A stretch of DNA of 64,000 bases from an uncultured cyanobacterium (GCA_963803805.1 CAWDOD010000001.1:1-64000), one strand, 5' to 3'; counted from the stretch's first letter, positions 17,849-41,824 are shown. A program made the numbers and translations. Notes: generated by a model not told the origin, from the letters alone.

Positions 17849-17865
17849 TCCTCAATTGCTCTTTA

Positions 17866-22196: not shown

Positions 22197-22354
22197 ATGA
22201 AAAATACGCTGAATTACGTTTTCGCCTTAAAGATAGGATAGATATAAAGGAAGATAGTTTGAGATTTTATCCTATCTCAGGGCATAACTTAGATAGGGTA
22301 GAGGTTTGGGGTGGTCTTCCTATTACGAAAGATCATGGTTCAACTGTCATTTAA
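22197..22354 (+). pseudogene. cas2: cas2 3' half
   Basis: YAELRFRLKDRIDIKEDSLRFYPIS...RVEVWGG...STVI* matches the Cas2 C-terminus. The N-terminal YD motif is absent. It directly precedes a leader. Confidence 0.8.
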
Positions 22355-22541
22355 GTCTAGTTGCGGGCAGTCTCAGAAAATCTCTGAAACCCCCATTCTT
22401 TCGTTGAGATGGCCCATCCATTACTCTGTAAGGATTTGAGGTGCTTTTTTCTTATTGTTTTATTCGTCAACATAGATGTTTTTAGGGGATGAGCCAAACC
22501 GCTTCTAGACACTATGCAGGGTAAGGGTTTAAAATGAGGGG
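22355..22541 (+). promoter_or_regulatory. CRISPR leader (type A)
   Basis: Ends CCGCTTCTAGACACTATGCAGGGTAAGGGTTTAAAATGAGGGG; near-identical to 41309-41496. Confidence 0.85.
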
Positions 22542-23171
22542 GTCACGACTTCCATTAGGAAGTAAAGAAGTTGAAACGACTGATTTTGATTGTTACTCAT
22601 AATGATAAGTACCTAGAGGTCACGACTTCCATTAGGAAGTAAAGAAGTTGAAACTTCTCTATTTTTGTACACTTTAAAATCCTTAGAATTCGTCACGACT
22701 TCCATTAGGAAGTAAAGAAGTTGAAACGAAGAATTTTCTGGACTTGTCATAAAATCAGACCTCGTCACGACTTCCATTAGGAAGTAAAGAAGTTGAAACA
22801 TATTTTTTATATTCTGCCCAGAAGAAAGTGTCTTCTGTATGTCACGACTTCCATTAGGAAGTAAAGAAGTTGAAACCCAAATATTTTTTCTGCGGGCGTT
22901 CTTGTCACTACAAGTCACGACTTCCATTAGGAAGTAAAGAAGTTGAAACGGGTAGGGGTCAGCGGGAGGAACTTCCTCATCGCCTGGGTGTCACGACTTC
23001 CATTAGGAAGTAAAGAAGTTGAAACCATGGATAGCCCACTTGGGCTATTTTAATTTCCGCAGTCACGACTTCCATTAGGAAGTAAAGAAGTTGAAACTCT
23101 TCCCATCTTTCTAGTCTTATTTCTTCTCTATTTGAGTCACGACTTCCATCAGGAAGTAAAGAAGTTGAAAC
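22542..23171 (+). CRISPR. CRISPR array, 9 repeats / 8 spacers
   Basis: 36-bp GTCACGACTTCCATTAGGAAGTAAAGAAGTTGAAAC at 22542, 22619, 22692, 22764, 22841, 22914, 22990, 23062 and 23136. Orientation from the leader and the GAAAC 3' end. Confidence 0.98.
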
Positions 23172-23327
23172 ACTAGTCTGATTTCTTTTAGTCACTTTAT
23201 ACGCAATAACTTCCATACTAACTTGCACTTTTTAGCATCAAATCAAAAATCAGGAAGCATCACCACAGTTACTCAGCTTAGCAGTAGCTGTTAGAATAAG
23301 TACTTTTGTTCTATTAGTTCCTGTTTT

Positions 23328-24229
23328 ATGTGGCTCAAATATGGTCTGAGCCGAAGATGGCAACCTCATTCCTGTCGAAGATGTACCCAAAGGTAAAACT
23401 AATTTGATTTGCCTTTACTGTGGCGATACTTTAACTGCTAAGAAAGGTAAGGTTAAAGTTCATCACTTTGCACATAGCCATGCTACTTGTAAACTCAGTG
23501 GCCCGCCGCAAAGTCCCTTCTTTACCCCTTTACGACAATTTTCACCTCCATCTTTCTCCCCAGGAATTGCTACAACATCAACAACTATGGCGAGAATATG
23601 GTCATACGAACTATTCTCCTGTCCATGTCCCTTTTAGTCTGGTTTTGAAGAAGCTTTTTGCTTGGAATAATCAACTACAACCCCCTGGCTATGGCTTCAC
23701 TAACTTGGGTAAGATTCCTGTCAATGCCTTGTCTCTCCAAGAGTTTAACCAAGTTCAGGAACCTTTACTCCTGGAGAAGTTGCAGCAATTTCACTCTGCC
23801 TTTAACATAGCTAAGCTCACTAATTCAGCTTCTTTAGCTGTGAAACAAGCCGACTGGCAAATGTATTGCGCCCAATTGCGGCGTATTTTAGAACTCCAAC
23901 TCTACTTTTTAAGGGTGTCTACCTCCGCAAAAACCATTTACAAAATTGGTGTTACTAAACGCACTATTGAGGAACGAGTAGCTGAGGTGACTAGAGATGT
24001 CAGAAAGCATTTAGGCAAGCTTCACATAGAAGTATTAGGCACTTGGCCTCATAGGGGTAATGTAGAACTTTACTTTAAACACCGTTACAAGGATGACAAT
24101 TATCCTTTAGGCAAACTAACAGAGTATTTTGATTTTGCGGATGTGGAGCCTGTGGCAGCAGATTTGCAGGCGATGGAGGCTAAGGTTTTACAGGCTGAGG
24201 AGTTGGATTTGTTGAAGCTTTTCCTCTGA
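23328..24229 (+). CDS. CoiA-like Zn-finger plus GIY-YIG/T5orf172-like nuclease domain protein
   Basis: CLYCG...KVHHFAH; LYFLRV...IYKIGVTKRTIEERV. Indels differ between arms, so the gene is probably intact. Confidence 0.7.
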
Positions 24230-24955
24230 CCGGGTGTTCATGTTTCCCTAAACCAAAAAGTTCGTTTCTGCTGATACTCTCCCAGTCCCTGGTTTGAGTT
24301 TTGCTCTTTATTTGGACTGTTTTCGGTTGAGATTCAGCTTGAAGTTTCTGCTGCTTAAGTGATGTTTCTAACTGGTTAACTTTTTCTTCTAACTGGTTGA
24401 TTCTTTCTTGACTACTTTTCTGGTAACTTTCCAACTGCTGTCTTAGCTGTTCTATTTCAGTTTTTTCTTCTTTATCTTCTTCTGGTTGTAGTTGTTCAAT
24501 ATTTGCTTCTGATGAAGAGGGAAGCTCAAGTAAGGGAACTTCTACTCCATCTGGTACATAGTAAGCTCCGTAGCCTATTGAGTAGGTTAGTTTGCTTAGG
24601 TCTGCGTCTGTTAAGGCTTGACCATTTTCTCCTTCGATTAGATGCCCTGCTAATTTAGCTGCGGCTATTGTTTTGGCTGTCATGCTACCTTGAACGTCAC
24701 GGGCTACAGCTAAGCATAGGTAAGCACTTCTTAAGTCTGTGGCAGAGTTGAGGTCGTTTTCTCCATGGTCGTTGGGTCTAGGGGTTAGTATGCTTTGAAA
24801 TTCTTTGTCGATGATACGGTTGTAACGTTTGTTTGTTCGCCTGTCTATGGCTATGTTTTGTTCTCCTTTGTCTGAAGTTTTGGCGATAATCGATGACCAG
24901 ATCCTTTGATATTCATGATGTTGTTTGAACTGTTGACTTTTTTTGAGGAAGTAAG
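24222..24955 (-). pseudogene. Second, internal fragment of the protelomerase gene
   Basis: Close copy of about 16445-17190 (DLRSAY, LAGH, coiled coil); lacks the N-terminal GRR/K motifs and the C-terminus. Confidence 0.85.
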
Positions 24956-25182
24956 TAGTCGTACAAAATTCTTTGTATATTTACCATTTAGTTATACATC
25001 CGTTCCCCGTTCCCCGTTCCCGATCTCAGCAAAATGTTCAATTAATTTTGTCTAAGTACTTATGGATGGTTACAAGAAAGCTACTGATGATTTTGTAACT
25101 ACAATCTCAGTAGCTTATGGTGTGGACAAATTGTCCACATTTCTTGCCTCTACAAATTAGGCTAGTTGAAGCTAGCCTAATT

Positions 25183-25422
25183 TTAATTGACATGGCTGCT
25201 AGTATCAGGGATTGCTGCTTTATTTGCCTTGCGGAAGCAAGTTCGACATATTGGAGGTTTTTTTCTGACAAGCCATCTTATTCTTTTGCAAAGACCGCAC
25301 ATTCCTTTGCGGTCGCCTCTTTTCTCTTCTAACTTCTGCCTGTTTTTTTTGTTGTACTTCCTGCGGCTGCTACGTCCTTTTTCGGAGTGATTGTATTTTT
25401 TTTGAGGGTCAGGAGTTGTCAT
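25183..25422 (-). CDS. Small basic hypothetical protein (CxxC ... CxxC)
   Basis: MCGLC...PICRTC suggests a Zn finger; follows the 236-aa gene on the same strand. Confidence 0.45.
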   Translation of the reverse strand: MTTPDPQKKYNHSEKGRSSRRKYNKKNRQKLEEKRGDRKGMCGLCKRIRWLVRKKPPICRTCFRKANKAAIPDTSSHVN

Positions 25423-25455
25423 GGTAAAATGCTTGTGGTTTCTGTGACAAGAACC

Positions 25456-25491
25456 ATACCTTTAGCTGAACAATAATACAGCTAAAGGTAT
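25456..25491. terminator. Stem-loop downstream of 25497..26207
   Basis: ATACCTTTAGCTG ... CAGCTAAAGGTAT inverted repeat. Confidence 0.6.
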
Positions 25492-25496
25492 TGATG

Positions 25497-26207
25497 CTAC
25501 GCTGCGTATTTCTTAAGAAATTCGATTTTACTTAAATGATCTTTGAGGTACTCTTCAATACCTGTAGCCTTATAATTCTTTCCGCACCAATCTGTGTAAC
25601 ATTTACAATGCTCTTTTATTGAGGATTTATAATTAGAACATAGGTCAAGGATATTGCCTTCATAGCAATATCCATTCTCATAATCTATCCTAAAGAATGC
25701 TTTGAAAAAGCTTCCAGAAGGAAGCTTTTTAGCCGTTTCTCGCAGAAAACTATTGGCCTCGATTAAAAGTTCTTTGCTAGGTGTTGACTTTGTACAAAAC
25801 TCTTGTCCTGTTTCCACATTAATGTAGATTTTTTTAGGTAAAATTTTCTTTCTTTCTTCTGTATACTCTTTTAGTAGAAACCCTTTGTGTAAAGACTTGC
25901 CTACCCATTCTAAGTAATAAGCAATCACCTCATTGTAAGTGGCAATTTTAGTCATAAACCCTGACGAGAACTTTCCTTTCCCATCTTCTAATAACTCAAC
26001 CTTAATAACTAAAAGTTCTACGTGAGCAGGTTCGCCGTCTGGGTTGAAAAAAATTGCGGTTTCATCTGGATTACATATCATCAATACAGGTATACCTTTC
26101 TCAGGTTCTAGTCCTAAAGACTGGATAAAATTCATCCCTTTTTCTACCAGTTTTTGGCTTACGTGAGCCGGTAATTTTTCTATTGATGTTTGATATTGAG
26201 TATTCAC
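25497..26207 (-). CDS. Hypothetical protein
   Basis: 236-aa ORF, no recognised motif. Confidence 0.7.
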   Translation of the reverse strand: MNTQYQTSIEKLPAHVSQKLVEKGMNFIQSLGLEPEKGIPVLMICNPDETAIFFNPDGEPAHVELLVIKVELLEDGKGKFSSGFMTKIATYNEVIAYYLEWVGKSLHKGFLLKEYTEERKKILPKKIYINVETGQEFCTKSTPSKELLIEANSFLRETAKKLPSGSFFKAFFRIDYENGYCYEGNILDLCSNYKSSIKEHCKCYTDWCGKNYKATGIEEYLKDHLSKIEFLKKYAA

Positions 26208-26460
26208 TTTTACTTCTTGGTTTCTGTGACATTTTTATTATAATACACGGTGACAAAAATGTCAATACTTGCTGGTAAAATCGTGCTATGACTTACGGGC
26301 TTCAGGTGCAAAATGCCCAAAATACTAACGATCATTAGTCTGGAAAAAGGGCAATTCCCTTTGACTACCTCCTTTGCTAACTACCAAAATTAAATAGCTT
26401 CCAAATACTTATTGTCACCTAACTTAGTTATTCCATACTCAAAAAGAGTACAGTATTCAG

Positions 26461-26850
26461 TTTTACTTCCTAATGGAAGTCGCAACAGCTCTATTTCCAG
26501 ACTGATAAACTAGCTTATAAAGAGTTTCAACTTCTTTACTTCCTAATGGAAGTCGCAACTAGATTAATCAAGGAGAAACAAAATGGGTAAAACCGTTTCA
26601 ACTTCTTTACTTCCTAATGGAAGTCGCAACCCTTCACATATAAAATCGGACTAGATAGTAACGTATTCGTTTCAACTTCTTTACTTCCTAATGGAAGTCG
26701 CAACTTGTCTGATTTAGAAGGAACTCTACCAACTTTAAATTGTTTCAACTTCTTTACTTCCTAATGGAAGTCGCAACGAAAAAGTGCGGAAATGGCAAAT
26801 CTGGCATTGGTGGTGTTTCAACTTCTTTACTTCCTAATGGAAGTCGCAAC
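26461..26850 (-). CRISPR. CRISPR array, 5 full repeats plus 1 truncated, GTTGCGAC repeat variant
   Basis: Repeats at 26524, 26595, 26669, 26742 and 26815; leader 26851-27045 lies downstream of the cmr operon. Confidence 0.97.
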
Positions 26851-27215
26851 CCTCTCATTTTAAACCCTTGCTCTGCCTGGTGTCTAGAAGCGGTTTTTCA
26901 TCACCTCCCTAAAACACTCATGTTGACGATAAAAACAACAGAGAGAAAGCACTTCTAAGCTCTGTAGAACAAGGGATTCATCACCTCAACGAAACAATGA
27001 GGGTTTCAGAGAATCTCCGAGGTGATGAACTTTCAGGCTTAAATGACAATTAGAATAGCTTTTTAGCTAAACTCAAAAAACTTCTAAACCTAGTGATAAC
27101 AGAGATTGACTTTCTTGATTTTTTAAAATCAACACAACATTTACCGATAAATAGTCCTTTTGCAAGACAAAAGATAAATCAGTTAATTCTTTTAAAAAAC
27201 CCTATTCAAACAACC

Positions 27216-28854
27216 TTAACCAGACCAAACCTTCTCAAACCCCTTACTTCCTAAACTCCTCTCCACCTCTCTATCAAAAACAGAAAGCAAACAGAAATCA
27301 AGATATTCCCTCACTGCATAACCAGAAGTACGCTTGTTTGTACTACCACACCAACCAGGTTTATCTGGGTTATTGCTAGTACGACAAACCCCATGGACAA
27401 TATCTCTCCATTGCTCTTTGTTCCCTTGCCAAATACTCACCAAACTACCCTTATCAGTAGATTGAGAAGGACGAGGGAGAGCTTTTTGAGGACGACGGGG
27501 AGGTGCTTTTAAACCTGGAGCTAACTTAGTAGTTGTTGACTTTGGTTTACTAGGTTGAGGTAACAGACTCAAACCATTCTCCTCTGCCAATACCTTCAAT
27601 AAACTTAGTAAATGGGTAAGTAAATCAGATAGGGGCAAATCAGAATTACTGGGACTAAAGGAAAACTGGCTACCCCTGAAAACCCGATGGTTCATCTCAT
27701 GGGGCGGTCTACGCCAACCAGGGCCTAATCCCCCTAAACGACTGGATAACTCTAGTAAATGGTTAATTAAATCCTCAAACTTGTTACTGCAATCAACATT
27801 AATCAACCAAACCTCATGAGGATCTCTTTTTGGCATATTACTATAACCGTTATCCGGAACTGTGCTAAATTTCGGCTGCTGTATTTTCTTCAAATAGCTA
27901 GTCAACACCAACTGCCCCGGACAACTCAACCCCCCAAAGATAATGTCAGTCAGCTTTTGGCTATCTTTTTTATTTAAAATTCGCAAAGCTAAACGGGTAA
28001 AATAGCCCCGTAAATTAGCCCGCAAAACCTGGGGACTCCAACGATACTTACCCACTTGGTTAGACCTGTTGTCATGGGTCTGATAACAAGGCTTCATCCC
28101 CTCTAACCTAATTTGCCATTTCCCCTCCGGAATCTTCTCAGCCAAACGCCCAAAACCACTCCTAGTTCCCCTACCAATACCTTGCTGCTGCAACATAGCT
28201 AGCAGAGCCTGCTGCAACCACTTTTTTTCGTCGTCTGTAGAATCATTCTTAAGTAACACCTGCAAAGTAAACTTATCTGCACTGTAAGGATTGGGAGGAT
28301 GTTTAGGAGGTACTTGCCACTGTACCCCCAGTTTCCCTGGATCTTTCATCAAAAATCTGCCATTCCTGCTGTGGATTAAGAGGGAAAGGTTTAAGATTTT
28401 TCAACAACACACTCTCAAAGCGAATCTTCCTCGGCAACCAAGCCTGCCTATCTGGACTCATCAAACGTGACCAAAAACCCTGTTGTTGCTGGTCTAAACT
28501 TGACCACTGCTTACGCAACCAACTTAACAAAGCTCCCTTAACACTAGAACCAGGAATCCAAGGTACACCATTCACCTGAGCAGGTAAAGTACCCCCTTCA
28601 AAGAAGCTGTCGCCCCCAACTTGAATAGGACTAATCACCTTTAACCCTGACAATTTCACCGTATGCAACTTAGCTGGCTGGGGTGAACAACTACCATTCC
28701 AAGCATTAACAACTTCATAATTATTAGACTTCTCAACAATATCCCCAGTTTCCGGTGTCCAACCTTTATATTTGTATTCTTCCGTCTCGTCTCCAATCGG
28801 TTTAACCCTATACCAATCCGGCATCTCTGTCGGCAAAGCTAATCTCTTACTCAC
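27216..28854 (-). CDS. Two-RAMP protein, Cmr6-Cmr1-like fusion (frameshift near 28340)
   Basis: PWIPGSSVKGAL and GIGRGTRSGFG; second RAMP LRANLRGYF...IFGG...LGGLGPGWRR. Confidence 0.8.
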
Positions 28855-28970
28855 AATTAAATCCTCTTAAATTACAAAAACGGCATCAGTAAATGTAGGT
28901 ACGATTTCTGCTCCCACATAAAATCTAACTAGCCTCTCCAAAGCCAAAAGCTAAAAGCTAAAAGCTAAAA

Positions 28971-29396
28971 TCAAACCTCCCTATTCCCAACATCTTTAAG
29001 ACGCATCGTCCAAAACTGAATGGTGGCAGAAATCTCGATTAACAAATCTGCTAACAAAACCTGCTCATTAAAATTTAGCTCCATTAACTTGTTTTGAAAT
29101 TCCTGAGTAGTCATATCCTGCCTAATTCCCAACTCACCTACTACTTCACACAAAACTAACCTAGCCACAGCCCAAGCAAAGTAACGTCTTTCCTCATCCT
29201 TTCCGGAATCAGCTTCAGGAATTCCCCCTTCTCTAAGCACAGGCGATCGCGACATAGCCCAAAATCTCTCCAATCCCCAACTAGCAACATAATCAGCAAT
29301 GCCACTAGCAGCACCCTGCCAATTATCTAAGCTTTGCTTACCTTCTTTTAGTTTCTCAAATACCTTCTTGTCTAACTCGTAGTGAATAACTCCCAT
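28971..29396 (-). CDS. cmr5: Cmr5-like small subunit
   Basis: 141-aa helical protein between cmr4 and cmr6; YVASWGLERFWA. Confidence 0.7.
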   Translation of the reverse strand: MGVIHYELDKKVFEKLKEGKQSLDNWQGAASGIADYVASWGLERFWAMSRSPVLREGGIPEADSGKDEERRYFAWAVARLVLCEVVGELGIRQDMTTQEFQNKLMELNFNEQVLLADLLIEISATIQFWTMRLKDVGNREV

Positions 29397-30182
29397 TACT
29401 TTTCCTTCTCCACAGCCACAACTTTAATACGCCCATAACCTACACTCCACAAACCACCAAGGAAATGCTCACTATGCAAAAATTTCGACCATTTTGATAA
29501 ATGGTCAACCTTGCCCCTAGTAGTCCAAGAAAGGCTAAAAACTGCACCAGGGGGAAATCCTTCCACAGCAAAGAGATTCTCCACCAAGGAACCCTTTTCA
29601 TTAGGTTCATCCCGTAAACTTACCCTTGGCTGCCGCACAATTCCCATATCTACCAGAAGGTTAATACTTTCATCAGGTACAACAATACGGCGATTCTCTG
29701 TTACATCACCAGGGGCTGGTAAGCTTTTACCGTCTGAATATATTAACGTTAGCAAGCTTCAACCACCGTAGGAAAACCGTCTTATTTTCCAATGCAGGTT
29801 CTGTAACATAAACCTGATCAGGCTTCAAATTGCTAGGAGTCTGCCCTGATAATTGTTGAAAACGCTTCAACCAACTTACACAACTAACCCACCAAGTCCC
29901 ATAACCCAGAACATGAACAGGCCACCACACAGGCCAACCCCAACCTAATGAGATGTAGCCTGGAGAAATGTTATCTCCCTCTCCTCCAAACCAATTATTC
30001 ACATATCCCTTATAGTCCTCATCTCCATTAGCGTGTTCCCGCAAAGCCCCTCGTAAAGAGCTTCCTGGAATAGCAGGACTACGGTCGGGTAAACGAAACA
30101 CAGGGTTATTATTCCCCCTAGAGCTACTATCAGCCCCACCAATATGCACTGGCTCTTGACAAACTAACCATTCTACAGACAT
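29396..30182 (-). CDS. cmr4: Cmr4 backbone RAMP (frameshift near 29740)
   Basis: PVHIGG, PAIPGSSLRGALR, LFAVE, LGGLWSVGYG. Confidence 0.85.
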
Positions 30183-30194
30183 TAATATTAATCC

Positions 30195-31222
30195 TCAAAA
30201 TAACCACAAATGACCGTAACCCAAAGCATCCCGATGATAATCATCAGGTAAAGGCCCTGATTGCTGTATAGGTGCATCCTGCCAAAGATAAACTGCTCCA
30301 GCCGGAGTTAACCATTCCCCTGGTGTCAAAACCTTAACTTTCTTGTTGTTACTACTATCGTTCGACCCTGAAGACTTTTTGCGAGGAGGAACTTTCTTCC
30401 AAGATTGCCAAGGAATAGCTTCTTCTGCGGCATAAGCTTTTACTTTGCAGTCAGGGTAGGGTAAAGAAACAGGAAGTCGTCCTTTTTGCCACAAAGCCCC
30501 AGTCAACAGAATAGCTTCTGTTGACCTTTTCTGGAGCTTCACCAATCTGTTCCCAAGACTTGAGAGGCTTCTCTACCTTCTTAATAGCTACAGGTGTGCC
30601 CCCAGCCCCAAGGGTACTCAATCTTGGTGTCTCCTCATTATCCCCAATCACTTTCACCAAAATTGACCAACCAGGATGTAGGTAAGTAGCCATTTCTGCA
30701 AAGAATCCTCCCTCATCTTTGACCTGAAAATCTTCACGGCTATTGTGACTGAGAGTTAAAGTTTCCCAAGGCAGTTTTTGTAGGGGTAAAGGAGAACGAG
30801 GAAACTTACCTGATTGCCAAAAGCTCTTTAAAGCTTGAGTACTAATCAAATAGCGACCGCCAATAACTTCAATCTCCTGCTTCTCATGTTCCGGTTGCTT
30901 ACTCCACATCCCTGCGACATCATCCCAAAGTAAGCGATACATATTCTTTGGTATCTCATCGGTACTTTGTCTCCCCTTAACAAGGGTGTAAACGGGTAAG
31001 GGTAAAGGTACATAAAACTCATTACCACCTTGATACCAAAAAGGCCCCCAGAGTTTATGATGACGATGATTTTCCTTACGGTTATCTAGCTTTAAGCAAG
31101 CAGCTAAATGATGCCCATTAGGAGGCCAGCGACAACCAACTTGCCCACTGTTTTGTCCTACAGGAGTTAAATTACCGATGGCAATCAGGGCCAGAAGGAG
31201 TAAGAGAATACCAGTTTGTCAT
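30195..31222 (-). CDS. cmr3: Cmr3 (several frameshifts)
   Basis: Starts MTNWYSLTP..RWPP..LWGPFW..YVPLP (read manually, ATG at 31222); LGAGG, LLTGALW, PAGAVY, ALGYG. Confidence 0.8.
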
Positions 31223-31304
31223 AGTTAATGAAATGGAAAATTGTTCTAATGGTGAAGCCCTGTTTAATGGCTCTTTGGCTACTTTCTCAGCTAAAAGCTA
31301 ACAG

Positions 31305-33527
31305 CTAATCACTAATCACCCCCTCCAACCAAGTCTCACGCTCCCTATCCTGACGAGCTAAGAAACCGCGAAGAGCAAGCCAGTTTCTCCACCATTGCCA
31401 AGAGCCAATTTCTTGACGTAGGTTTTTCCCTGCCCCTAGCTGCTCAATTTGACTCCATTGCAAAGGTAGACCAACACTAGCCCAGAGAGTATCAAGAAGT
31501 TCTTTGACTGTTTGAGGAGAGTTGATTTCTAAGTTAGTAGTTTCTAAGTAAAACAGTAACTTCTCCCAAACATTCAACTCGGTTTTATCCTGCTGTTTAG
31601 CTTCTACCCCCATCAACAAATGCCACAACTTCCAGGGACAAGTCCATTGCAGAGATTGACCACTATTAAAAAGCACCTCCACACAAACACGCTCTCGCCC
31701 TGCTTCTTTAGCTTTTTTGTATGCAGCATTTAAAGTCCGATGCCAGAGAGATTGAGGAATGCGTCTTTGAGCAATCACCAAGCCAAGACTAAAAGTCATT
31801 TGCTTTCCTGGAACAGGATAGACTTGCTCCTCATAGTTGACCCAACCATCAAGAGACATAGCAGTAGTTAGAGGGTTTTCTTCACCTTGCCACAAACTAT
31901 GTAAATTACTGGTTAAAGAAACTGCATCAGTCAGGGGGCCAAGAAGCAAAAAGTCATCACCACCAGCGAAAATCACTTTACCATTGTGATGTTTCTCTGT
32001 GAGGGCATAGAGTAATTTATTCCATAGCCCAAACAAAACAGAAATATCTAACATATGAGGTAAATCTATTTTCCTAGCTTGGGATGGTACATTCGGTTGA
32101 GAAGTTACCAGATTTTCTTGGTTAATAATTTCTGGAGTAAGATGCCATTGTGACCAAAGCAATTTGAGAGCTTTGTACTTTTCTCCAGACAGCCACTCAC
32201 TAAACTTGTCTCCATCACCACGCCAACCCACAGTCCACTCAATAGTGCTTTCCCAACCTTTAGTAACATCACTATCCCAAATCTCTAGTAATTCGTGGTC
32301 ATCAACATTACGTCTTTCTAAAGCACGGGGATGGTCAAACTGTTTGTAACTATCTATTCTCGGCATTCCCCATTCCTTCTTTTTACTAGAAGAATCAGGA
32401 AAATAATCTTTTTCTAAAGCACTAATCTTTTGATTCCAAACTTGGGGGTCAACACCAGCATCACCTATCCAAGCCGCCGCCGCCGCAGTACGATCAGGAA
32501 ATCTCTCCCATGGGCAAAAGGGTAAGGAATCCCTATTAACCCATAACCTAGTCAGGGTGGGACGAATAATCTCTGGTATAGATGCTAAACGCTTCACCAT
32601 CTCCAAACTGTTCAGGCGATCGCTGCTAGAAAACAAACCCGCAAGATGAGTTTCTCGGCGTTGAGATAGTTTTTGCCACCAATTTTTGAGATTATCTTCT
32701 GGCAATCCCCAAGTACCACCTTTGTCGATAGGTTTTAAGCCAGGATGCCATACAGAAAGAGAACCAGCACTAGGACTAGTTTTTCCGGCCCACCACTGCT
32801 TTTGCCAGCTACGACCTATTTTTTGTGCCTCCAGATGTTGGTGGAGTTTGGCTAAGGTAGCTGTAATAGTTTCTGGATTACTGATATTGAGGGGGGCTTG
32901 ACTAATATAAACTGACCAAAGGTGTTGACAATCTCCACGAATTACTTGCCACCCTACCCCATTTAAAAGGGTACGTTCATAGGAGATTGCCGATTGTTCT
33001 AAACAGCGTACAAATTCGCTCCATTCCCTTTGCACTATATCCTTTATTTCTTCTAACCAGCCCTTTTCGTTAGGAAAAATGCCAGTAAAAATGTTGGGTA
33101 ATTCTGCTTGCCAAAAAGATTCGTCTTGGTGAAACGACTCTTTTTTTAACCATTGCACTAAAGGTACAGAGCGATGTAGAGGTAACAACACTTTGCCCCC
33201 TCTCCGTTCCCAGTGATAAATTACTACAGCACTGAGATAGTGACAAAGCCAAGAACTTACAGCCCAATCCCTCAACCTTTGCCCACCTCCTAAAAAAGTT
33301 TGCACTGGGCCAAAGGTTAATACTCCCAACTGGTTTAAATTAGGATCAACACCCTCTAACTGTGCTGCTGTTTCTTGAGTTGCTCCCCCTCCCCACCAGA
33401 GTTGCGATCGCAAGTAAGCAGATTCTTGCCATTGCCCACTAAGGGGATGAATAGAAAGAGTAGGATCTTCTTGAGATACTTGAGTATATAATTCCCTTTG
33501 GCGTTGTAACCAAGTTTCTATTTGCAT
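31305..33527 (-). CDS. cas10: Cas10/Cmr2, no HD domain, intact GGDD palm
   Basis: FGPVQTFLGGGQRLRDWAVSSWL; GDGD; IFAGGDDFL; FSLGLVIA. Confidence 0.93.
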   Translation of the reverse strand: MQIETWLQRQRELYTQVSQEDPTLSIHPLSGQWQESAYLRSQLWWGGGATQETAAQLEGVDPNLNQLGVLTFGPVQTFLGGGQRLRDWAVSSWLCHYLSAVVIYHWERRGGKVLLPLHRSVPLVQWLKKESFHQDESFWQAELPNIFTGIFPNEKGWLEEIKDIVQREWSEFVRCLEQSAISYERTLLNGVGWQVIRGDCQHLWSVYISQAPLNISNPETITATLAKLHQHLEAQKIGRSWQKQWWAGKTSPSAGSLSVWHPGLKPIDKGGTWGLPEDNLKNWWQKLSQRRETHLAGLFSSSDRLNSLEMVKRLASIPEIIRPTLTRLWVNRDSLPFCPWERFPDRTAAAAAWIGDAGVDPQVWNQKISALEKDYFPDSSSKKKEWGMPRIDSYKQFDHPRALERRNVDDHELLEIWDSDVTKGWESTIEWTVGWRGDGDKFSEWLSGEKYKALKLLWSQWHLTPEIINQENLVTSQPNVPSQARKIDLPHMLDISVLFGLWNKLLYALTEKHHNGKVIFAGGDDFLLLGPLTDAVSLTSNLHSLWQGEENPLTTAMSLDGWVNYEEQVYPVPGKQMTFSLGLVIAQRRIPQSLWHRTLNAAYKKAKEAGRERVCVEVLFNSGQSLQWTCPWKLWHLLMGVEAKQQDKTELNVWEKLLFYLETTNLEINSPQTVKELLDTLWASVGLPLQWSQIEQLGAGKNLRQEIGSWQWWRNWLALRGFLARQDRERETWLEGVISD

Positions 33528-34972
33528 TAAAGACTTTCCTGAACTTCCGAGGTTAAGTTGTGGTAATACTTAATTCTTTGATTGACTTCCGTAGCTGCAT
33601 CAGCTAGATAAATAATGTATTTCAACCATTGCACTGCTACTTCTGAAGGGTGATTTTTGTTAGTTACGGAATGATATTTTTCGGTTTTTTTATCTAAACT
33701 TTCATCAATAACATCCCCTAGTAAAGAGTGATAAAGATTATTACGAATGTGGGTAAAAGCCATCTTAAACTCTGAATCTATTTCCCAACACCGACAATAA
33801 AACTGTTTAAAGTCTCTCCATTCAGCAGTGTCGGCTATAGCATCAACCTTGTGACCATCAAAATAACCATCACTTAGTAACTTATTAACCACTTTGCCGA
33901 TACTTAGAAAACGTCTATCACTACCTGGCTCTTTGCATTGCAGCTTTCCCCCTTCCCTTTGCCAAATATACTTTCCGAAACTTTGCTTTTCTACCAAACA
34001 CCACAAAGCCAACTCTAAAGCCCCTGCTATCCTCATATACCAGTGCATCCATTGCCCCCGCTCCCGAAAAGCCTTTTCACTCCAAAGAGCGATCGCTATT
34101 CTTTCAATCACTTCTTGTCTGGGAGTTAAGCCTAGTTTTAAAGCTGCGACATTTAAAGAGACTGCATAATCAAGAGTTTTTAACTTCTGCTCAATTCCTT
34201 CTGTTAAATAATTCTCCGCAATAGTCAAGACACCGCTAAAATCCTGAATAGCTATTAACTGTTGAATTTGCGGCACTTTCAACCGCCAGCGCCAATGATT
34301 ACCTTCGTGACTGTAATAGCGGGAGTTTTCTTTGGAGATATAAACAAATTCTACTGGTTGTTTGGCTAGCTTCTGCTCAATTCCCCATAGATACAAAGCG
34401 CTACTTAATGCCGGAGTACCACTACTATGTTGAATAACAATCTTTTCTATTTCAACTTTCTCTTCTTTGGTAGTTTGAAAGAAAAGAGTATTCTTCTGAG
34501 CTAGAATTAGTTGATTAAAACGTTGATTAACCAACTCTGCCATTCCTTCCCAATCTGCTGCACCTTTATCGATATGGGAACTAATTTCTAAGGGAATAGG
34601 ATAATAATTAATCTGCTGTTGTTTACACCAATACTCAAGAATATTACGCCACCAATAACCATCAGAAGCAATAATTTCTTGTATCGCTTGACTTTCTAGA
34701 TTCTGGTGACTCGCTAGCCAGCTACTTTGTTGAGTTAAGATTACTCCCAAATAAACATCTTCTTGCTTCCCTTCCTTTGCATATTCCTGCCAAACTTGGC
34801 GAATCTGCGGGAAATCTACCCTTTCTATTTCCTCTAACAATTCCTCATCATTTATCTGTGCTACCTCCTCAGCATCTTCTACTGTATAAGCTGTTTGCAA
34901 TCTTGCTGCCCCTTCATCGGAATCTACGAGAACATCACTGTTTCCCAAGACTTGCAGGATTAAAGTTTTCAT
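33527..34972 (-). CDS. CARF-HEPN ancillary RNase (Csx1/Csm6-like)
   Basis: N-terminal LQVLGNSD, CARF-like HSSGTPALSSAL, HEPN RxxxxH (RNNLYH). Stop overlaps the cas10 start. Confidence 0.75.
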   Translation of the reverse strand: MKTLILQVLGNSDVLVDSDEGAARLQTAYTVEDAEEVAQINDEELLEEIERVDFPQIRQVWQEYAKEGKQEDVYLGVILTQQSSWLASHQNLESQAIQEIIASDGYWWRNILEYWCKQQQINYYPIPLEISSHIDKGAADWEGMAELVNQRFNQLILAQKNTLFFQTTKEEKVEIEKIVIQHSSGTPALSSALYLWGIEQKLAKQPVEFVYISKENSRYYSHEGNHWRWRLKVPQIQQLIAIQDFSGVLTIAENYLTEGIEQKLKTLDYAVSLNVAALKLGLTPRQEVIERIAIALWSEKAFRERGQWMHWYMRIAGALELALWCLVEKQSFGKYIWQREGGKLQCKEPGSDRRFLSIGKVVNKLLSDGYFDGHKVDAIADTAEWRDFKQFYCRCWEIDSEFKMAFTHIRNNLYHSLLGDVIDESLDKKTEKYHSVTNKNHPSEVAVQWLKYIIYLADAATEVNQRIKYYHNLTSEVQESL

Positions 34973-35186
34973 CTTCTAGGTTTGTAAGTTGTTTTCCTCG
35001 CTCAGAAACTATAGCTACACCACTTTTTGCTTTATTCAACTTAGATACTATCAGAAGTAGTAGAGAAAACCTAGAGTTTGATAATACTTTCTCCAATTGT
35101 TTAAATGCTTATGTCTTATTCTCCGACTAGCTTTTAAAGATTAAGCTTAAATATAATCAATATTATCTTTATCTTGACAGTCTCTT

Positions 35187-36344: not shown

Positions 36345-36552
36345 GGGATTTTACTGTCATTTAATGCCAGCTTGCGGCCACCTACCGGAATGGGCTGAAA
36401 CCACCATTTTACGTGGAGGCGGCCGACCTTTGATGGGGAGAGGGTTATAGCCGTTTTTGTTTCCCTTTTTCTTCTAGAGTTTGCTTAAGAAAAGGTAGGT
36501 GGCCGCAAAGCGCTTCTAGACACCAGGCAGGGTAAGGGTTTAAAATGAGGGG

Positions 36553-36660
36553 GTCACGACTTCCTTTTGGAAGTAAAGAAGTTGAAACATTACAGTGTAA
36601 GAGACACGATTTTTATCAAAATCCGTCACGACTTCCATTAGGAAGTAAAGAAGTTAAACA
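36553..36660 (+). CRISPR. Mini-array, 2 repeats / 1 spacer, leader type B at 36355-36552
   Basis: Repeats at 36553 (TTTT loop) and 36625 (degenerate end). Confidence 0.88.
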
Positions 36661-36804
36661 CCCTGATGCGATCGCAAAATATGTATCAAACTGCGATCGC
36701 CTCTAGCAGTATTTAGAGTGAGATAGTTTTGCTGTACTGTAAAAGCTTAATATTAAGAAAGCACTGCTTATCTTTGTGTTTTTGTTACAATCGACTCTTT
36801 AATC

Positions 36805-37551: not shown

Positions 37552-37906
37552 TCTTGCTTAAGTTGGTTTTTGAAATGATTTACCTTTTTGCTTTGAAAAT
37601 GGTTTGAGGTGAGGAATAATTAGCTAAGATTTGAGCGAATTTTAAGCTATAAGTCAGATAAAATAAAGCTTAGAGAGGATATTGCTATTACTAAAAAAGT
37701 TATTCCAACTGTCATTTAATACCAGCTTGCGGCCACCTGCCGAGATGGGCTGAAACCACCATTTTGCGTCGAGGCGGCCGACCTTTGATGGGGAGAGGGT
37801 TACAGCCGTTTTTGCTCCCTTTTTCTTCCAGAGGTTGCTTAAGAAAAGGTAGGTGGCCGCAAACCGCTTCTAGACACCAGGCAGGGTAAGGGTTTAAAAT
37901 GAGGGG

Positions 37907-38086
37907 GTCACGACTTCCGTCAGGAAGTAAAGAAGTTGAAACACTCTCTTGGCTAATTCCCTAGAAGCGCCATTTTTGTCGTCACGACTTCCTCTTGGAA
38001 GTAAAGAAGTTGAAACCCATGACAAAAAAAGTCAACTTTCGAGCTTCTGATGTCACGACTTCCACTAAGAAGTAAAGAAGTTAAAT
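37907..38086 (+). CRISPR. Mini-array, 3 repeats / 2 spacers, leader type B at 37709-37906
   Basis: Repeats at 37907, 37981 and 38052 with loop variants GTCA, TCTT, ACTA. Confidence 0.9.
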
Positions 38087-38250
38087 AACTTTATGCGATC
38101 GCAAAATATGTATCAAACTGCGATCGCATCGTTACACCTGGAGGGTATCGCTAAACATCTTGGTATAGAAGTAGGACGAAATCACAATATGCTAAGATGT
38201 TTTCCTAACAAAATATCAATAATAACTTATCTTCGAGACTTAACTTCTTT

Positions 38251-39961
38251 GTGCCAGCAAGAGACATTTATCATGACACCGTAAAACGTGCTTTAGAAAA
38301 GGATAACTGGACAATCACCAACGATCCTTTCCCCCTAAAAATCGGTAAGAAGCGCCTGTCTGCTGACTTAGGGGCAGAACGCCTGATTAGTGCGGAAAAG
38401 GGTATTAAAAAGATTGTTGTGGAAATCAAAAGTTTTGTTGGCCCCTCTAATGTCAAAGACTTAGAACAGGCTTTAGGACAATATATCTTGTACCTAGCAG
38501 GGGGACATAAAGTCTAAAAAGTAGACAGAGCAAGTTCGACAGCACGTTGCCCTTTTTTGTAATGAAAAATCCAACGGCGATTAATTTGCAAAAGTTCTGA
38601 CAAAGTTTTTTGGCACAATTGCTGTAAGCGAAGCCAGTTATGAAGATGTTGACCAACATAAAAAGAGCTATGTTTGCGCTGTGCTTGATGAGCATTTTCT
38701 GGTCGTGCTACATATTTTTGGATACCCATACGCTTAATTTTTTGCCCTTGTAGTAGAGCGCTGGTATAAGCAATAGCTACAACAATTAGTAGTTTATTAA
38801 GCTGTTGTGAGTGAAGTTTGGAACCTTCAAGATTATATCCTCCTGCTTTAAAATCACGAAACATTTCTTCAATATCAAAGCGCTTCTGATAAGCTCGAAT
38901 TGCTGTGTCTACATCAGACAAATTAGTCAAGATATACCAAGGTTCTTTTGTTTTCAATCCTTGGTAGTTTCTTTTCCATTTCCCAGCAATATTGAAAGTG
39001 CCAAATCCTTTTTTCTTCGTCACCTGTTGGTTGCTCAGAAATAGCTTTGTACCAGGAGCTAAATCAAGTTCTCTTAGTTCTTGATATAAGCCGTTTTCAC
39101 ACTCAATCTTTGTGTCACATTTCTGTCTCAAACAAAAATATGTATCCTTCTGTCTCAGCCAGCTTGCCAGTTTTGGCGAACAAAATTCTCTGTCTCCTAA
39201 TATGACTAGTTTATTCTCCTGCCTATTCTCTGATAATAACTCTATACTTTTGCTTAATACTTCTTGCTGTTCTATGAGATTGCTACTTCCTTTTTTTGAC
39301 AAGAAACTCCAATATACTGGCCATGCTCTGTTGTCGTAGATTACACTCACCATCAAAATATTTATTATTCCCCAGCTCGTTCTGTCTATTGCCAAATATA
39401 TTGTCTCCTTTGGCTTTAACATCAGAGTTAATAAACACTTTACGCATTCAAACCATACACCCTCTATGCTTAATTGTTCCTTTCTTAAAAAACGCCGCAT
39501 TTTCTTGCGCCTGCTTTCAAATAATATCGGTATTGGTAGAGCTTCTGCTAATACCTCTAACTTCACTTGCTTGAGCATTTGAAGAGCTTCTACCACTAAC
39601 ATTAATAATAGACAAGTACTTTTACCCAATTCTTTTTCAATTATTTTCTGGTATTCTTTTGCTATCATTTTCTTTTACTAGGTCAGAGCTACTGTATCTG
39701 ACCTATCTTTTTTTTACCAGCACCACCGTTTCTTTGGCTACATCTAGCTCTTACTTCTCTGTGTACCCCTGCCAGATCTTGTACCAACAAATTCTTGACA
39801 AGATGGGTATAGAAAGAAGCCTTTACTTAGCTATTTCTCAACCAACCTTTAACAGTGTATTCAATATAGAATTAGGACAGATGTTACTAGAAAATCAAGT
39901 AGTCAAGTTGATTATCTTTGATGAGCAAAGTGAGGCAATAGTAGAATGGATACCCGATTAA
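38251..39961 (+). pseudogene. xisH: Second xisH, interrupted by an IS
   Basis: ...LEQALGQYILY|QQILDKMGIERSLYLAI... restored when 38494-39784 is removed. Confidence 0.88.
38494..39775 (-). mobile_element. IS4-family element with intact transposase (38514..39668)
   Basis: TIRs CTAGCAGGGG / CCCCTGCCAG; 9-bp TSD ATCTTGTAC at 38485 and 39776; motifs IDRT, GDREF, YQKRFDIEEMFRDFK. Confidence 0.95.
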
Positions 39962-40284
39962 ACTACCAAAAGATTATTCAAACTGTTCTTCAAGATCATG
40001 CTGACTATCGTAATAGCTTCTTAGATGGTTACAATTGTCAGCTTCTTTTTGATCAACAACGAGGTCAATACTTAATTTTAGATATTGGCTGGCAAGGAGA
40101 TCAATATCTTCATGCAACTCCTATTCATCTTAGTTTAATTGATGATAAAGTCTGGATTCAGTCTGATGATACAGAAGAAGGAGTTGCTAATGATTTGATG
40201 GCAGCAGGTATCCCTAAAGAGTCTATAGTACTCGGTTTCCGCCATCCTAGAATAAGAGAACATACAGGATTTGCTGTAGCTTAA
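39946..40284 (+). CDS. xisI: XisI-family protein (second paralog)
   Basis: KVWIQSDDTEEGVANDLMAAGIPKESIVLGF. Confidence 0.92.
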   Translation: MDTRLNYQKIIQTVLQDHADYRNSFLDGYNCQLLFDQQRGQYLILDIGWQGDQYLHATPIHLSLIDDKVWIQSDDTEEGVANDLMAAGIPKESIVLGFRHPRIREHTGFAVA

Positions 40285-40639
40285 TCTTATTTAAGTTGCT
40301 TTTTGAAATGATTTACCTTTTTGCTTTGAAGATAGGGTTGGTGAGGAAAGATTAGCTAAGATTTGAGCAGATTTTGAGTTATAAGTCAGATGAAATAAAG
40401 CTTAGAGAGGATATTGCTATTGCTGAAAAAGTTAGTTCAACTGTCATTTAACACTAGCTTGCGGCCACCTGCCGAGATGGGCTGAAACCACCATTTTACG
40501 TGGAGGCAGCCGACCTTTGATGGGGAGAGGGTTACAGCCGTTTTTGTTCCCCTTTTTCTTCCAGAGGTTGCTTAAGAAAAGGTAGGTGGCCGCAAACCGC
40601 TTCTAGACACCAGGCAGGGTAAGGGTTTAAAATGAGGGG

Positions 40640-40823
40640 GTCACGACTTCCTTTTGGAAGTAAAGAAGTTGAAACATCTTTAATGGCTGAGATTATCCAG
40701 CGTTCTTATTTTGAAGTCACGACTTCCTTTTGGAAGTAAAGAAGTTGAAACACCTCACACATCGCTTTGCTGAAGCGTCCATCTCCTCCGCCGTCGTGAC
40801 TTCCATTAAGAAATAAAAAAGTT
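40640..40823 (+). CRISPR. Mini-array, 3 repeats / 2 spacers, leader type B at 40441-40639
   Basis: Repeats at 40640, 40716 and 40793 (last one degenerate). Confidence 0.9.
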
Positions 40824-41496
40824 GGGTTCTGTAGAACCAGTTTTTGGGCAACCAAAGCAGTAATTACCGGAACTGCTTTTGTATTAGACTTTATCGGAAA
40901 TAGTGGAGAAAGTGATTGAGGCGATCGCATCTTCCTCTAACTTTTACTGGTTATGCAACTTGCAACACTTCACTACCTCTTTTGGAGCGGTGAGTAAGGC
41001 GGAAATTATGCAACCCACAGGCTGTTTCCATCACATCATCACCTAAAGTGAGCTAACCAATTGCGGAACTTTTGTACCACAATCTGACACCTCTTGATAC
41101 CTCCTATTTGAGAAAGTTTGGTCTGGTTAGAGTTATTTTAATGGGGCTTTTTAAGAAAATCAACTGATTTACCTTTTGGCTTAAAGATAAATTAGTTATG
41201 GGTAAGTATGATGTTGATTTTGGGAAGTTAATGGCAGTTAATGCCTATGGATATTACCTCTAGGAGTTTATTTTAGTTAGCTAAAAAGCTGTTTTATTTA
41301 TCATTTAAGTCTAGTTGCGGGCCATCTCAGAAAATCTCTGAAACCCCCATTCTTTCGTTGAGATGGCCCATCCATTGCTCTGTAAGGATTTGAGGCACTT
41401 TTTTCCTGTTGCTTTATTCGTCAACATAGATGTTTTTAGGGGATGGCCCGAAACCGCTTCTAGACACTATGCAGGGTAAGGGTTTAAAATGAGGGG

Positions 41497-41824
41497 GTCG
41501 TGACTTCCATTAGGAAGTAAAGAAGTTGAAACCGCATAAAGCCAGGTTGCGCTGTTTTGTATCATACAGTCGTGACTTCCATTAGGAAGTAAAGAAGTTG
41601 AAACGAGGGTTATTTGCAGAAGCTAGTTCGTTGCTTTGTGTGTCGTGACTTCCATTAGGAAGTAAAGAAGTTGAAACAACTAGTTCCTCCAACAGGTAGG
41701 TCGAGGAGATATTCGTCGTGACTTCCATTAGGAAGTAAAGAAGTTGAAACAATATCATAGCGCGTGGTGCGGCGTGATCCATCATCACGTCGTGACTTCC
41801 ATTAGGAAGTAAAGAAGTTGAAAC
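41497..41824 (+). CRISPR. CRISPR array, 5 repeats / 4 spacers, GTCGTGAC variant, leader type A
   Basis: Repeats at 41497, 41569, 41642, 41715 and 41789. Confidence 0.97.

Follow-up and report, generated by a model that had tools for sequence, protein, structure and literature searches.

Orphan CRISPR arrays beside a type III-B-like locus of an uncultured cyanobacterium probably multiplied as a leader-bearing module that includes the 3' end of cas2

Arrays, leaders and effector locus

The window, by which we mean the whole 64,000-nt stretch of uncultured cyanobacterial DNA that was analysed (GCA_963803805.1 CAWDOD010000001.1:1-64000), contains six small CRISPR arrays at 22.5-41.8 kb, each with its own complete leader. 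The arrays (A1 to A6), their leaders, the cas2 remnants that precede the leaders (tails) and the effector module are as follows.

22181..22354, plus strand: A1 cas2 tail, 5'-truncated cas2, C-terminal ~57 codons, frame still open (64 codons)
22355..22541, plus strand: A1 leader, 187 nt as assembled; promoter-like site 22506-22535
22542..23171, plus strand: array A1, 9 repeats and 8 spacers
26451..26850, minus strand: array A2, 6 repeats (the last degenerate) and 5 spacers
26851..27038, minus strand: A2 leader; promoter-like site 26886-26857
27039..27190, minus strand: A2 cas2 tail, heavily decayed, starting ~30 nt past the last effector gene's stop
27216..34972, minus strand: type III-B-like effector module with a CARF-like protein, Cas10/Cmr2 and RAMPs, lacking cas1/cas2; paralogue of the locus on contig C2
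36351..36364, plus strand: A3 cas2 tail, last ~14 nt only; an unrelated 385-aa ORF lies upstream, ending at 36344
36365..36552, plus strand: A3 leader; promoter-like site 36517-36546
36553..36660, plus strand: array A3, 2 repeats and 1 spacer
37575..37719, plus strand: A4 cas2 tail with an in-frame stop, starting 24 nt past the xisI stop
37720..37906, plus strand: A4 leader; promoter-like site 37871-37900
37907..38087, plus strand: array A4, 3 repeats, all different, and 2 spacers
40308..40451, plus strand: A5 cas2 tail with an in-frame stop
40452..40639, plus strand: A5 leader; promoter-like site 40604-40633
40640..40828, plus strand: array A5, 3 repeats (the third degenerate) and 2 spacers
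41164..41308, plus strand: A6 cas2 tail, decayed; nearest relative, the A2 tail
41309..41496, plus strand: A6 leader; promoter-like site 41461-41490
41497..41824, plus strand: array A6, 5 identical repeats and 4 spacers

All six are CRISPR arrays by their 36-nt repeats and their 22 spacers of 35-41 nt, every one of which is different, as the original prediction had stated. Its count of six arrays is right for this range; the window as a whole holds eight, and the additional two, at 0.3-4.7 kb, are mirror copies. The repeats are uniform within arrays (8/9 in A1, 5/6 in A2, 5/5 in A6 and 2/3 in A5) and those of most arrays differ from one another by 2-4 nt, a pattern that growth of each array by duplication of its first repeat would produce; the last repeat is degenerate in A2, A3, A4 and A5. 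From such variants, private to one array, at least four arrays seem to have grown independently, and we infer that the six may, plausibly, be separate acquisition points. No match was found for the A1 array among phage records or for 36300-41900 among plasmid records.

The leaders are 187-189 nt long in all eight copies measured and 70-96% identical. Inside each of the six, 6 nt 5' of repeat 1, lies a promoter-like TAGACA-18-TAAAAT, which is a consensus match and no proof of a promoter.

The effector module gives Pfam matches to Cmr2_N and Cas10 palm2 together with four RAMP matches, and its operon adjoins an array, which places it with type III-B; the subtype name is approximate, because the NCBIfam Cmr2 and Cmr4 matches fall below their cut-offs. 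There is no Cas1 match in 1-64000, in agreement with the original prediction, and the window has no cas1-cas2 adaptation module of its own. The search elsewhere in the genome that had been proposed located intact cas1-cas2 on C2 and at C1:130-134 kb, with intact cas2 only at C1:130335-130553 and C2:436852-437133. As assembled, the cas1 of the matching C2 adaptation module is broken across two frames, which could be a real frameshift, and in that case present-day acquisition would depend on other Cas1 genes.

Remnants of cas2 upstream of the leaders

The 10-nt word TRTCATTTAA, the end of cas2, occurs eight times in the window and each time directly 5' of a leader (0.46 matches are expected by chance, and eight were reached in none of 100 shuffles). 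Six of these copies stand at the arrays of 22.5-41.8 kb and two (156-165 and 4871-4880) at the mirror copies, so that the claim that each leader is preceded by the cas2 end is borne out; the strings originally quoted in its favor are present in the sequence. In front of five of the six leaders lie some 150 nt that run co-linear with the 3' end of cas2, and the sixth, that of A3 at 36.3 kb, keeps ~14 nt, the last few bases that had been described for it.

At A1, positions 22181-22351 match the genome's intact Cas2 on C2 with 47% identity (tblastn, E 3.4e-12), and a DNA profile of five intact cas2 genes recovers the tail with E 1.1e-23 over profile positions 128-284 (nhmmer). Against Pfam Cas2 (PF09827) it scores E 7.5e-4 and 20.1 bits, short of the 23.8-bit cut-off, since the tail covers only positions 38-72 of the 74 in the profile. 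A complete Cas2 domain with the N-terminal strand and the conserved acidic residue is lacking, and the stretch 22197-22354, previously taken for the cas2 gene, is only a 5'-truncated gene fragment and no Cas2 protein.

The other tails were compared in anchored fashion, without gaps over the 145 nt counted back from the stop codon, the 10-nt word being left out; global alignments with cheap gaps are uninformative for the tails (shuffles reach 64%). By this comparison the A4 tail (37575-37719) is 52% identical to that of A1 (p 7.5e-9) and 46% identical to intact cas2 (p 3.7e-5), and the A5 tail is 46% identical to A1 (p 2.1e-5), with p 5e-3 against the intact cas2 on C2, which confirms that the DNA before these two leaders still aligns with cas2. 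The more eroded versions foreseen at A6 and A2 are also found: the A6 tail is 43% identical to A1 (p 4.8e-4), and the A2 tail, only 40% identical to A1 (p 0.013), is connected through A4 and A5 (46%, p 3e-4) and through A6 (local alignment, z 40). The region upstream of A3 serves as an internal negative control, with 29-34% identity and every p at least 0.34. Local alignments evaluated with 1000 shuffles gave z 11.5 for A1-A4, 12.6 for A1-A5, 6.6 for A1-A6 and 0.1 for A1-A2.

Alignment to cas2, the check originally suggested, succeeds in pairwise form for A1, A4 and A5 and, by way of other tails, for A2 and A6, but profiles miss part of the set: the A2, A4, A5 and A6 tails went undetected in the search with the profile of five intact cas2 genes, and a second cas2 profile gave E 0.17 for A5 and 0.39 for A4, values that shuffles equal. 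The putative cas2 origin of the A2, A4, A5 and A6 tails rests on pairwise comparisons with A1, with the G001 relic and, for A4 and A5, with the intact C2 cas2; similarity to cas2 is seen in A4 and A5 by anchored DNA comparison only, and in A2 and A6 only through other tails.

It seems improbable to us that the tail has been kept for a function, be it as a promoter, as a 5' extension of the leader or by encoding a short protein. The A1 tail remains an open frame, but its copy in a sister species has two stop codons. Some 150 nt are kept in five of the six units, with 5' limits clustering at about -145 to -186 nt from the stop (a spread of ~40 nt), and this clustering counts against pure chance truncation, which does not predict it; yet in A3 both leader and array are complete although only ~14 nt of tail are left. 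Among the decayed copies the first ~20 nt are the best-conserved part of the tail (14-15/20), whereas the tail is, on the two comparisons available, diverging faster than the leader: between A4 and A5, 130/146 tail positions (89%) are identical against 181/188 leader positions (96%; Fisher p 0.015), and between A1 and the G001 relic 123/166 against 54/63 (p 0.08). The leader family was looked at in 81 genomes, and its orphan leaders in other genomes have a cas2 signal within 330 nt in 0 of 9 cases. Local alignments of those in G044, G052 and G075 with two intact cas2 genes were significant in 0 of 7 cases (largest z 2.1), and the ~16/20 matches seen by eye at the very end upstream of these leaders are not significant. 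The original suggestion that the dead tail persists as a promoter element meets the same objections, with the additional one that the promoter-like site lies in all six leaders and none common to the tails was found.

Copying of the module and alternative origins

At the C2 locus the order is effector genes, last RAMP, a 147-aa ORF, cas1, cas2, leader and array, while in the window the effector genes are followed, ~30 nt on, by tail, leader and A2. The paralogues are 78% identical in Cas10 and 66% in the last RAMP, which has the same C-terminal end. Since the C2 locus retains cas1-cas2 where the window has only the tail beside A2, with the same last effector gene on one side and the leader on the other, this tail is most readily read as the scar of a deletion. 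A further trace of the last effector gene lies next to A6.

41107..41133, plus strand: relic of the last ~24 nt and stop of the effector gene preceding A2, beside A6; 22/27 identical

Together with a derived word common to the 5' ends of the A2, A4, A5 and A6 tails (5 matches including one mirror copy, 0.13 expected), this relic upholds the original prediction that the arrays arose by repeated duplication. A6 is a mosaic, as its leader matches that of A1 at 94-95% identity, yet its tail falls with that of A2 (70%, gaps allowed) instead of that of A1. Between A4 and A5, identity is 89% over a stretch that runs from the final 147 nt of xisI to the end of the first repeat; their paired XisH proteins are only ~60% identical (by eye, from translations). 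A3-A5 are arranged in tandem with xisH/xisI and have common downstream flanks. These comparisons support the view that the six arrays are copies of one module consisting of cas2 tail, leader and repeats. The module does not resemble a self-mobile element: terminal inverted repeats and a transposase of its own are lacking, its 5'-terminal word has no inverted copy anywhere in the window, and the nearby transposase genes belong to separate IS elements.

We regard it as unlikely that each array is instead the remnant of a separate complete CRISPR-Cas locus whose cas genes were lost independently. The effector-gene end at A6, the derived changes common to A2, A4, A5 and A6, and the tandem arrangement of A3-A5 with its common flanks all speak against such separate losses, and A1 and A3-A6 are flanked by no fragments of other cas genes. 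What does favor them is that the A1 tail looks younger, with 65% identity to intact cas2 against 37-46% in the other tails, and that the tail of the C2a array is related to the C2 cas2 (58%, p 1.4e-12); more than one truncation is therefore likely. In any case the A1 tail, with its 65% identity to intact cas2, stands much further from the other tails (40-52%), which requires that truncation happened at least twice or that an intact cas2 later converted this tail.

The assembly itself contains duplicated DNA at the start of the contig.

1..5828, minus strand: inverted, lower-quality copy of 21400-27203, 98%; mirror A2 at 354-742, mirror A1 at 4036-4682

It is followed at 6126-13065 by a 90% inverted copy of 14287-21400, and the mirror arrays, which have the same spacers as A1 and A2 apart from many small indels, are probably the product of an assembly fold-back. 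Contigs of run X1, which are short, with depth 0-17, leave most arrays without cover and provide no joints, differ from the window by single-base indels. An artefactual origin of the array multiplicity fits only the two mirror arrays, outside 22197..41824, and is very unlikely overall, because the 22 different spacers, distinct repeat variants and diverged leaders and tails of A1-A6 exclude collapse or duplication by the assembler there.

We therefore favor, with a probability of about 0.8, the reading that leader-bearing orphan arrays of a type III-B-like system multiplied as a module including the cas2 3' end and spread by copying and conversion. Homology, synteny, mosaic structure and relative rates of change are the observations behind it, and from them we infer an order of events as well as transcription and spacer uptake at individual arrays. 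In this leader family the leader starts at the cas2 stop codon. A deletion at the A2 locus would have taken cas1 together with the 5' portion of cas2, so that ~150 nt of cas2 remained behind the last effector gene and ahead of the leader, and the truncated module (tail, ~188-nt leader and repeats) would then have been copied to other sites by segmental duplication, its copies trading segments through gene conversion. The tail is decaying as a pseudogene fragment, and the leader stays conserved. Each copy is probably transcribable and may be served in trans by Cas1-Cas2 encoded elsewhere in the genome, because it has kept a full leader with its own promoter-like site.

A cas2 fossil and a full leader at orphan arrays point to copying of a cas2-proximal module, not to splitting of one long array, and the fossil may thus be a useful marker of orphan-array origin in this cyanobacterium. 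Orphan arrays here would have arisen from the cas2-proximal end (leader and first repeats) after a type III-B locus lost its adaptation genes, and the copies would continue to exchange leader segments. This offers a testable explanation for the rise of "distributed" CRISPR memory among filamentous cyanobacteria, which are rich in orphan arrays. It is a fairly ordinary case of CRISPR array multiplication and does not reveal a new kind of system.

A putative leader helix and comparison with known systems

As a separate observation, the leader appears to contain a long-range helix with compensatory changes. S1, an 11-nt word just past the cas2 stop, is complementary to a word that occurs twice further downstream, as S2 (~35 nt on) and as S3 (just before the putative array promoter).

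22364-22374 (S1), 22406-22416 (S2) and 22486-22496 (S3), plus strand: helix words within the A1 leader

The word varies between leaders, even inside this genome, and its three copies change together; words that differ per leader yet co-change suggest base pairing or another identity constraint. G-U and A-C mismatches are unbiased (6 vs 8; 9 vs 4), and sense RNA, antisense RNA and DNA are therefore indistinguishable as the helix strand. An Rfam scan of the whole window gave no matches at gathering scores.

Only tentatively, and with clear doubt, can these observations be joined in one reading, in which the item copied and kept would be a structured leader that acts as single-stranded DNA or folded RNA, its two helix strands would correspond to the acquisition-stimulating motifs I and III of the Synechocystis I-D leader, and the clustered tail limits might mark a preferred breakpoint of the module. 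Such a fold could form a stalk for processing or insulation where the cas transcript meets the pre-crRNA, or could guide Cas1-Cas2 to the first repeat. If this were true, with the helix covarying across families of the order, leaders of a widespread class would work via a nucleic-acid fold and not via protein-binding motifs alone.

Filamentous cyanobacteria typically have orphan arrays, and all 11 arrays of Anabaena are transcribed (Reimann et al., 10.1101/2020.04.14.041012). The window resembles the orphan ("fragmented") arrays of Anabaena sp. PCC 7120, with many small arrays without adjacent cas genes and few cas cassettes acting in trans. The Anabaena arrays are reported to be transcribed and processed (10.1101/2020.04.14.041012). 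In contrast to that report, the arrays in the window carry a full leader and a cas2 fossil; no mention of cas2 remnants was found in its accessible text (10.1101/2020.04.14.041012).

In Escherichia coli type I-E, the leader moves with cas genes and array as a unit, and cas deletions can leave leader and array behind (Almendros et al. 2014, PMC3903273). E. coli has one or two fixed loci, whereas a truncated module was multiplied at least five times within 20 kb in the window (PMC3903273).

The type I-D system of Synechocystis sp. PCC 6803 has a ~212-bp leader directly 3' of cas2, in which repeat-distal motifs stimulate acquisition (Kieper et al. 2019, PMC6607411). The leaders described here are similar in their ~200 bp abutting cas2, and they may share its conserved repeat-distal motifs and a short motif that lies ~50 bp ahead of repeat 1 (PMC6607411). 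Unlike PCC 6803, the window system is type III-B-like, and its cognate Cas1 scores 156 bits against the 385-bit cut-off of the I-D Cas1 model. As printed, I-D motifs I and III are mutual reverse complements, which fits the window helix, a relation that the accessible text was not seen to state (PMC6607411). The motif I hexamer occurs only in the A1 leader as assembled, where run X1 reads one extra base.

The type I-F leader has distal and proximal inverted-repeat motifs bound by a Cas2 dimer (10.1101/2023.05.26.542337). Our leaders likewise hold repeated words far apart, which in I-F are needed for integration at the first repeat (10.1101/2023.05.26.542337). In I-F, however, the words are conserved and read by shape, whereas in the window they vary per leader and change together (10.1101/2023.05.26.542337).

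Organization and probable growth of the arrays

The 160-kb contig C1, of which the window is the initial 64 kb, belongs to a 5.3-Mb genome that we read as that of a filamentous-type cyanobacterium from its HIP1-type palindromes, its xisH/xisI genes, and the families to which its relatives belong. Ten arrays genome-wide are built from one 36-nt repeat ending GTTGAAAC; the window holds eight of them, and the other two are on contig C2, which carries a paralogous type III-B locus. A leader precedes every one of the ten, and all 10 genomic copies of a 39-nt leader core are found there; the leaders of A1 to A6 are 187 to 189 nt long.

Arrays and effector module
22542-23171, + strand: array A1, 9 repeats
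26451-26850, minus strand: array A2, 6 repeats
36553-36660, + strand: array A3, 2 repeats
37907-38087, + strand: array A4, 3 repeats
40640-40828, + strand: array A5, 3 repeats
41497-41824, + strand: array A6, 5 repeats
27216-34972, minus strand: effector module paralogous to that of C2 (Cas10 78% and last RAMP 66% identical)
C2:425122-426112: array C2a, 14 repeats, upstream of the C2 effector genes

As originally predicted, the 22 spacers of A1 to A6 all differ, and none of them recurs among the 29 spacers found in the C2 arrays. Majority repeat variants lie 2 to 4 nt apart between arrays, except that A3 equals A5, while repeats within an array are largely uniform (A1, 8/9; A2, 5/6; A6, 5/5; A5, 2/3). 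During Cas1-Cas2 integration, each new spacer arrives with a duplicate of the first repeat, and this uniformity therefore suggests that A1, A2, and A6 grew after separating from one another. A5 probably did likewise, while A4, whose three repeats are all different, looks inactive. We infer that there may be several acquisition points among the arrays.

The contig starts with an inverted duplication of about 13 kb (1-13065 versus 14287-27203), in which 1-5828 is a 98% copy of 21400-27203 and 6126-13065 is a 90% copy of 14287-21400 with many indels. The first arm has mirror A2 and A1 arrays with identical spacer sets, the A1 mirror spacers contain many small insertions (length up to 46 nt versus 41 nt), and some open reading frames (ORFs) broken in this arm are intact in the second. 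The inverted copies are probably a contig-end fold-back artifact, a real inverted duplication being the less likely reading. Internal repeat blocks of about 90 to 350 nt (72 to 86% identical) flank the center at 12040-12645 and 14694-15313, within a 5-kb stretch that has no ORFs of at least 80 aa. Short contigs from DNA sequencing run X1 show single-base indels relative to the window, among other places at 28347 and 30523, exactly at overlaps of neighboring effector ORFs, so frameshifts that seem to interrupt the type III genes of the window may be assembly errors; further differences fall within two leaders, at 22495 and 36461.

Decayed cas2 ends and the probable copying of units

The word TRTCATTTAA occurs eight times in the window, each time abutting a leader start (0.46 expected; 0 of 100 shuffles reach 8). 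The stretch initially used as the cas2 reference (22197-22354) is itself merely a fragment: the frame 22160-22354 encodes 64 residues, the final 57 of which match the intact 94-residue Cas2 of C2 at 47% identity (E value, 3.4e-12). This A1 tail covers only positions 38 to 72 of the 74 in the Pfam Cas2 profile (20.1 bits, under the cutoff of 23.8) and, at the DNA level, aligns to positions 128 to 284 of a profile made from five intact cas2 sequences (E value, 1.1e-23).

The remaining tails were put to two tests, both leaving out the 10-nt word: local alignment against 1,000 shuffles and an ungapped, stop codon-anchored comparison over 145 nt. Local alignment to A1 gave z scores of 11.5 for A4, 12.6 for A5, 6.6 for A6 (1/1,000), 0.1 for A2, and 0.0 for A3. 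In the anchored test, the tailless A3 sets a background of about 30% (29 to 34%, P ≥ 0.34 throughout). Identity to A1 was 52% for A4 (P = 7.5e-9), 46% for A5 (P = 2.1e-5), 43% for A6 (P = 4.8e-4), and 40% for A2 (P = 0.013); A4 was also 46% identical to intact cas2 (P = 3.7e-5), and A2 was 46% identical to A4/A5 (P = 3e-4). The A6 and A2 tails are 51% identical ungapped and 70% gapped (local z score of 40). The cas2 profile search did not detect the tails of A2, A4, A5, or A6, and the best E values of a second profile on decayed tails (0.17 to 0.39) were equaled by shuffles. The case for these four putative tails rests on A1 and on a relic of an A1-type tail in G001, a sister species of the same genus, and A4 and A5 additionally resemble the C2 cas2 directly, though less strongly. 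The original prediction that the leaders are preceded by cas2 3' remnants is confirmed, with A2 as the weakest case.

No Cas1 match was found within the window, as predicted, and cas1/cas2 sets lie at two other places in the genome. One, at C1:130-134 kb, comprises two cas1 genes and one cas2 gene with a different repeat; the other, at C2:435871-437133, runs from cas1 (two frames) through cas2 and a leader to a 17-repeat array of the window's repeat family. The cas1 at C2:435871-436714 (locus L051, 16863-17856) consists of two overlapping frames; the split is either genuine or, perhaps here too, an indel introduced during assembly. The full C2 order is a CARF-like gene, cas10, RAMP genes, a 529-aa RAMP, a 147-aa ORF, cas1, cas2, leader, and array. 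In the window module, the last RAMP has the same C-terminal end as its C2 counterpart, and the cas2 tail begins about 30 nt beyond its gene, with the leader and A2 behind it. On the simplest reading, the A2 tail would be what remained after a roughly 1.8-kb deletion took out the 147-aa ORF, cas1, and the initial 130 nt or so of cas2. C2a also carries a leader (92% identity to the C2 leader next to cas2) and a decayed cas2 tail 58% identical to the C2 cas2 in a stop-anchored comparison.

Upstream of the A6 tail lies a remnant of the A2-side RAMP gene, comprising its final 24 nt and its stop codon (22/27 identical), which indicates that A6 is a copy of an A2-type junction. A derived 19-nt word at the tail 5' end is common to A2, A4, A5, and A6 and absent from A1 and intact cas2 (five matches including one mirror copy; 0.13 expected). 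A3, A4, and A5 stand in tandem with xisH/xisI pairs in between (36805-37551 and 38251-40284; the second xisH is interrupted by an insertion sequence with a transposase at 38514-39668). The remnant, the shared word, and the tandem bear out in outline the proposed origin of the arrays by duplication.

The identities among units are mosaic. The A6 leader is 94 to 95% identical to that of A1, beginning at the cas2 stop, while the A6 tail is instead closest to that of A2. A4 and A5 share an 89% identical tract that takes in the final 147 nt of xisI, the tail, the leader, and the first repeat, the flanking xisH products being only about 60% identical (translations compared by eye). A3 and A4 share an array-downstream flank (repeat family D13, 91%), and A3 homology to A4/A5 begins at 36353, 12 nt ahead of the stop. 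This pattern argues that gene conversion or repeated partial copying between units continues.

The 5' limits of the tails are near one another (about -186 in G001, -160 in A1, -150 in A2/A6, and -145 in A4/A5), and the A1 tail, 65% identical to intact cas2, looks younger than the others. Either several truncations occurred near one place or one truncated module later had part of its sequence replaced from an intact cas2.

Tail function and a covarying helix in the leader

The evidence speaks against a function of the tail, including the proposed one as a promoter element. A promoter-like site (TAGACA-18-TAAAAT) is present in 6/6 leaders, ending 6 nt short of repeat 1; the tails have no such site in common, A4 alone having one of its own. 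Between A4 and A5, identity is 89% in the tail (130/146), 90% in the xisI end, 87% in the intergenic stretch, and 96% in the leader (181/188) (Fisher test: tail versus leader, P = 0.015; all nonleader DNA versus leader, P = 0.006). Between A1 and the G001 relic, it is 74% in the tail and 86% in the leader (P = 0.08). That relic (locus L008) has a longer cas2 tail with two in-frame stops and just the initial 63 nt of a leader, without an array; BLAST found no repeat of the window's family in G001. A3 is structurally complete without a tail. In other genomes of the order, same-family leaders without adjacent cas2 gave a cas2 profile signal within 330 nt in 0/9 cases, and 0/7 local alignments of orphan leaders to cas2 were significant.

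A BLAST search with the A1 unit as the query recovered the leader 5' part from 9/81 genomes of the order, this one included; at all loci inspected except the G001 relic, a different CRISPR repeat lies about 150 nt downstream. An 11-nt word, S1, 10 to 20 nt past the leader start, is complementary to S2, just behind a conserved loop, and to S3, a copy of the S2 word about 45 nt ahead of the first repeat. All leaders have equivalents of the A1 words, and other loci have an equivalent three-part word (L009 to L027, L041, and L049).

Helix words of the A1 leader
22364-22374, + strand: S1
22406-22416, + strand: S2
22486-22496, + strand: S3

We aligned 24 leaders from eight genomes (six window leaders, one C2 leader, and 17 leaders of seven other genomes). 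S1 and S3 pair in 91.6% of 263 cells, with compensatory changes in 11/11 pairs, against 31 to 46% in slid controls, and RNAalifold predicted this long-range helix unaided. The covariation score is 0.937 versus 0.235 shuffled (0/500 reach it), and row-by-row pairing is 236/264 for S1:S2 and 241/264 for S1:S3 (maxima over 2,000 partner permutations, 183 and 182), although the aligned leaders are kin, so that these shuffle figures inflate significance. Among the 24 leaders, there are 17 distinct S1 words, six of which occur within this single genome (in the leaders of A1 to A6 and of the second C2 array, C2b). A real constraint on the words is supported by the slid controls and by the variation among leaders of this genome. 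With no clear excess of either G-U or A-C mismatches, the pairing could lie on either strand. An Rfam scan of the whole window gave no match at gathering scores, and no description of such a helix was found in the portions of the literature consulted, which is not proof of its being unpublished. Motifs I and III as printed for the Synechocystis I-D leader (Kieper et al., PMC6607411) are mutual reverse complements, and their positions correspond to S3 and S1 here.

Overall, the locus is a well-documented instance of the orphan arrays already known from filamentous cyanobacteria, and its cas2 fossil informs on how the arrays originated.
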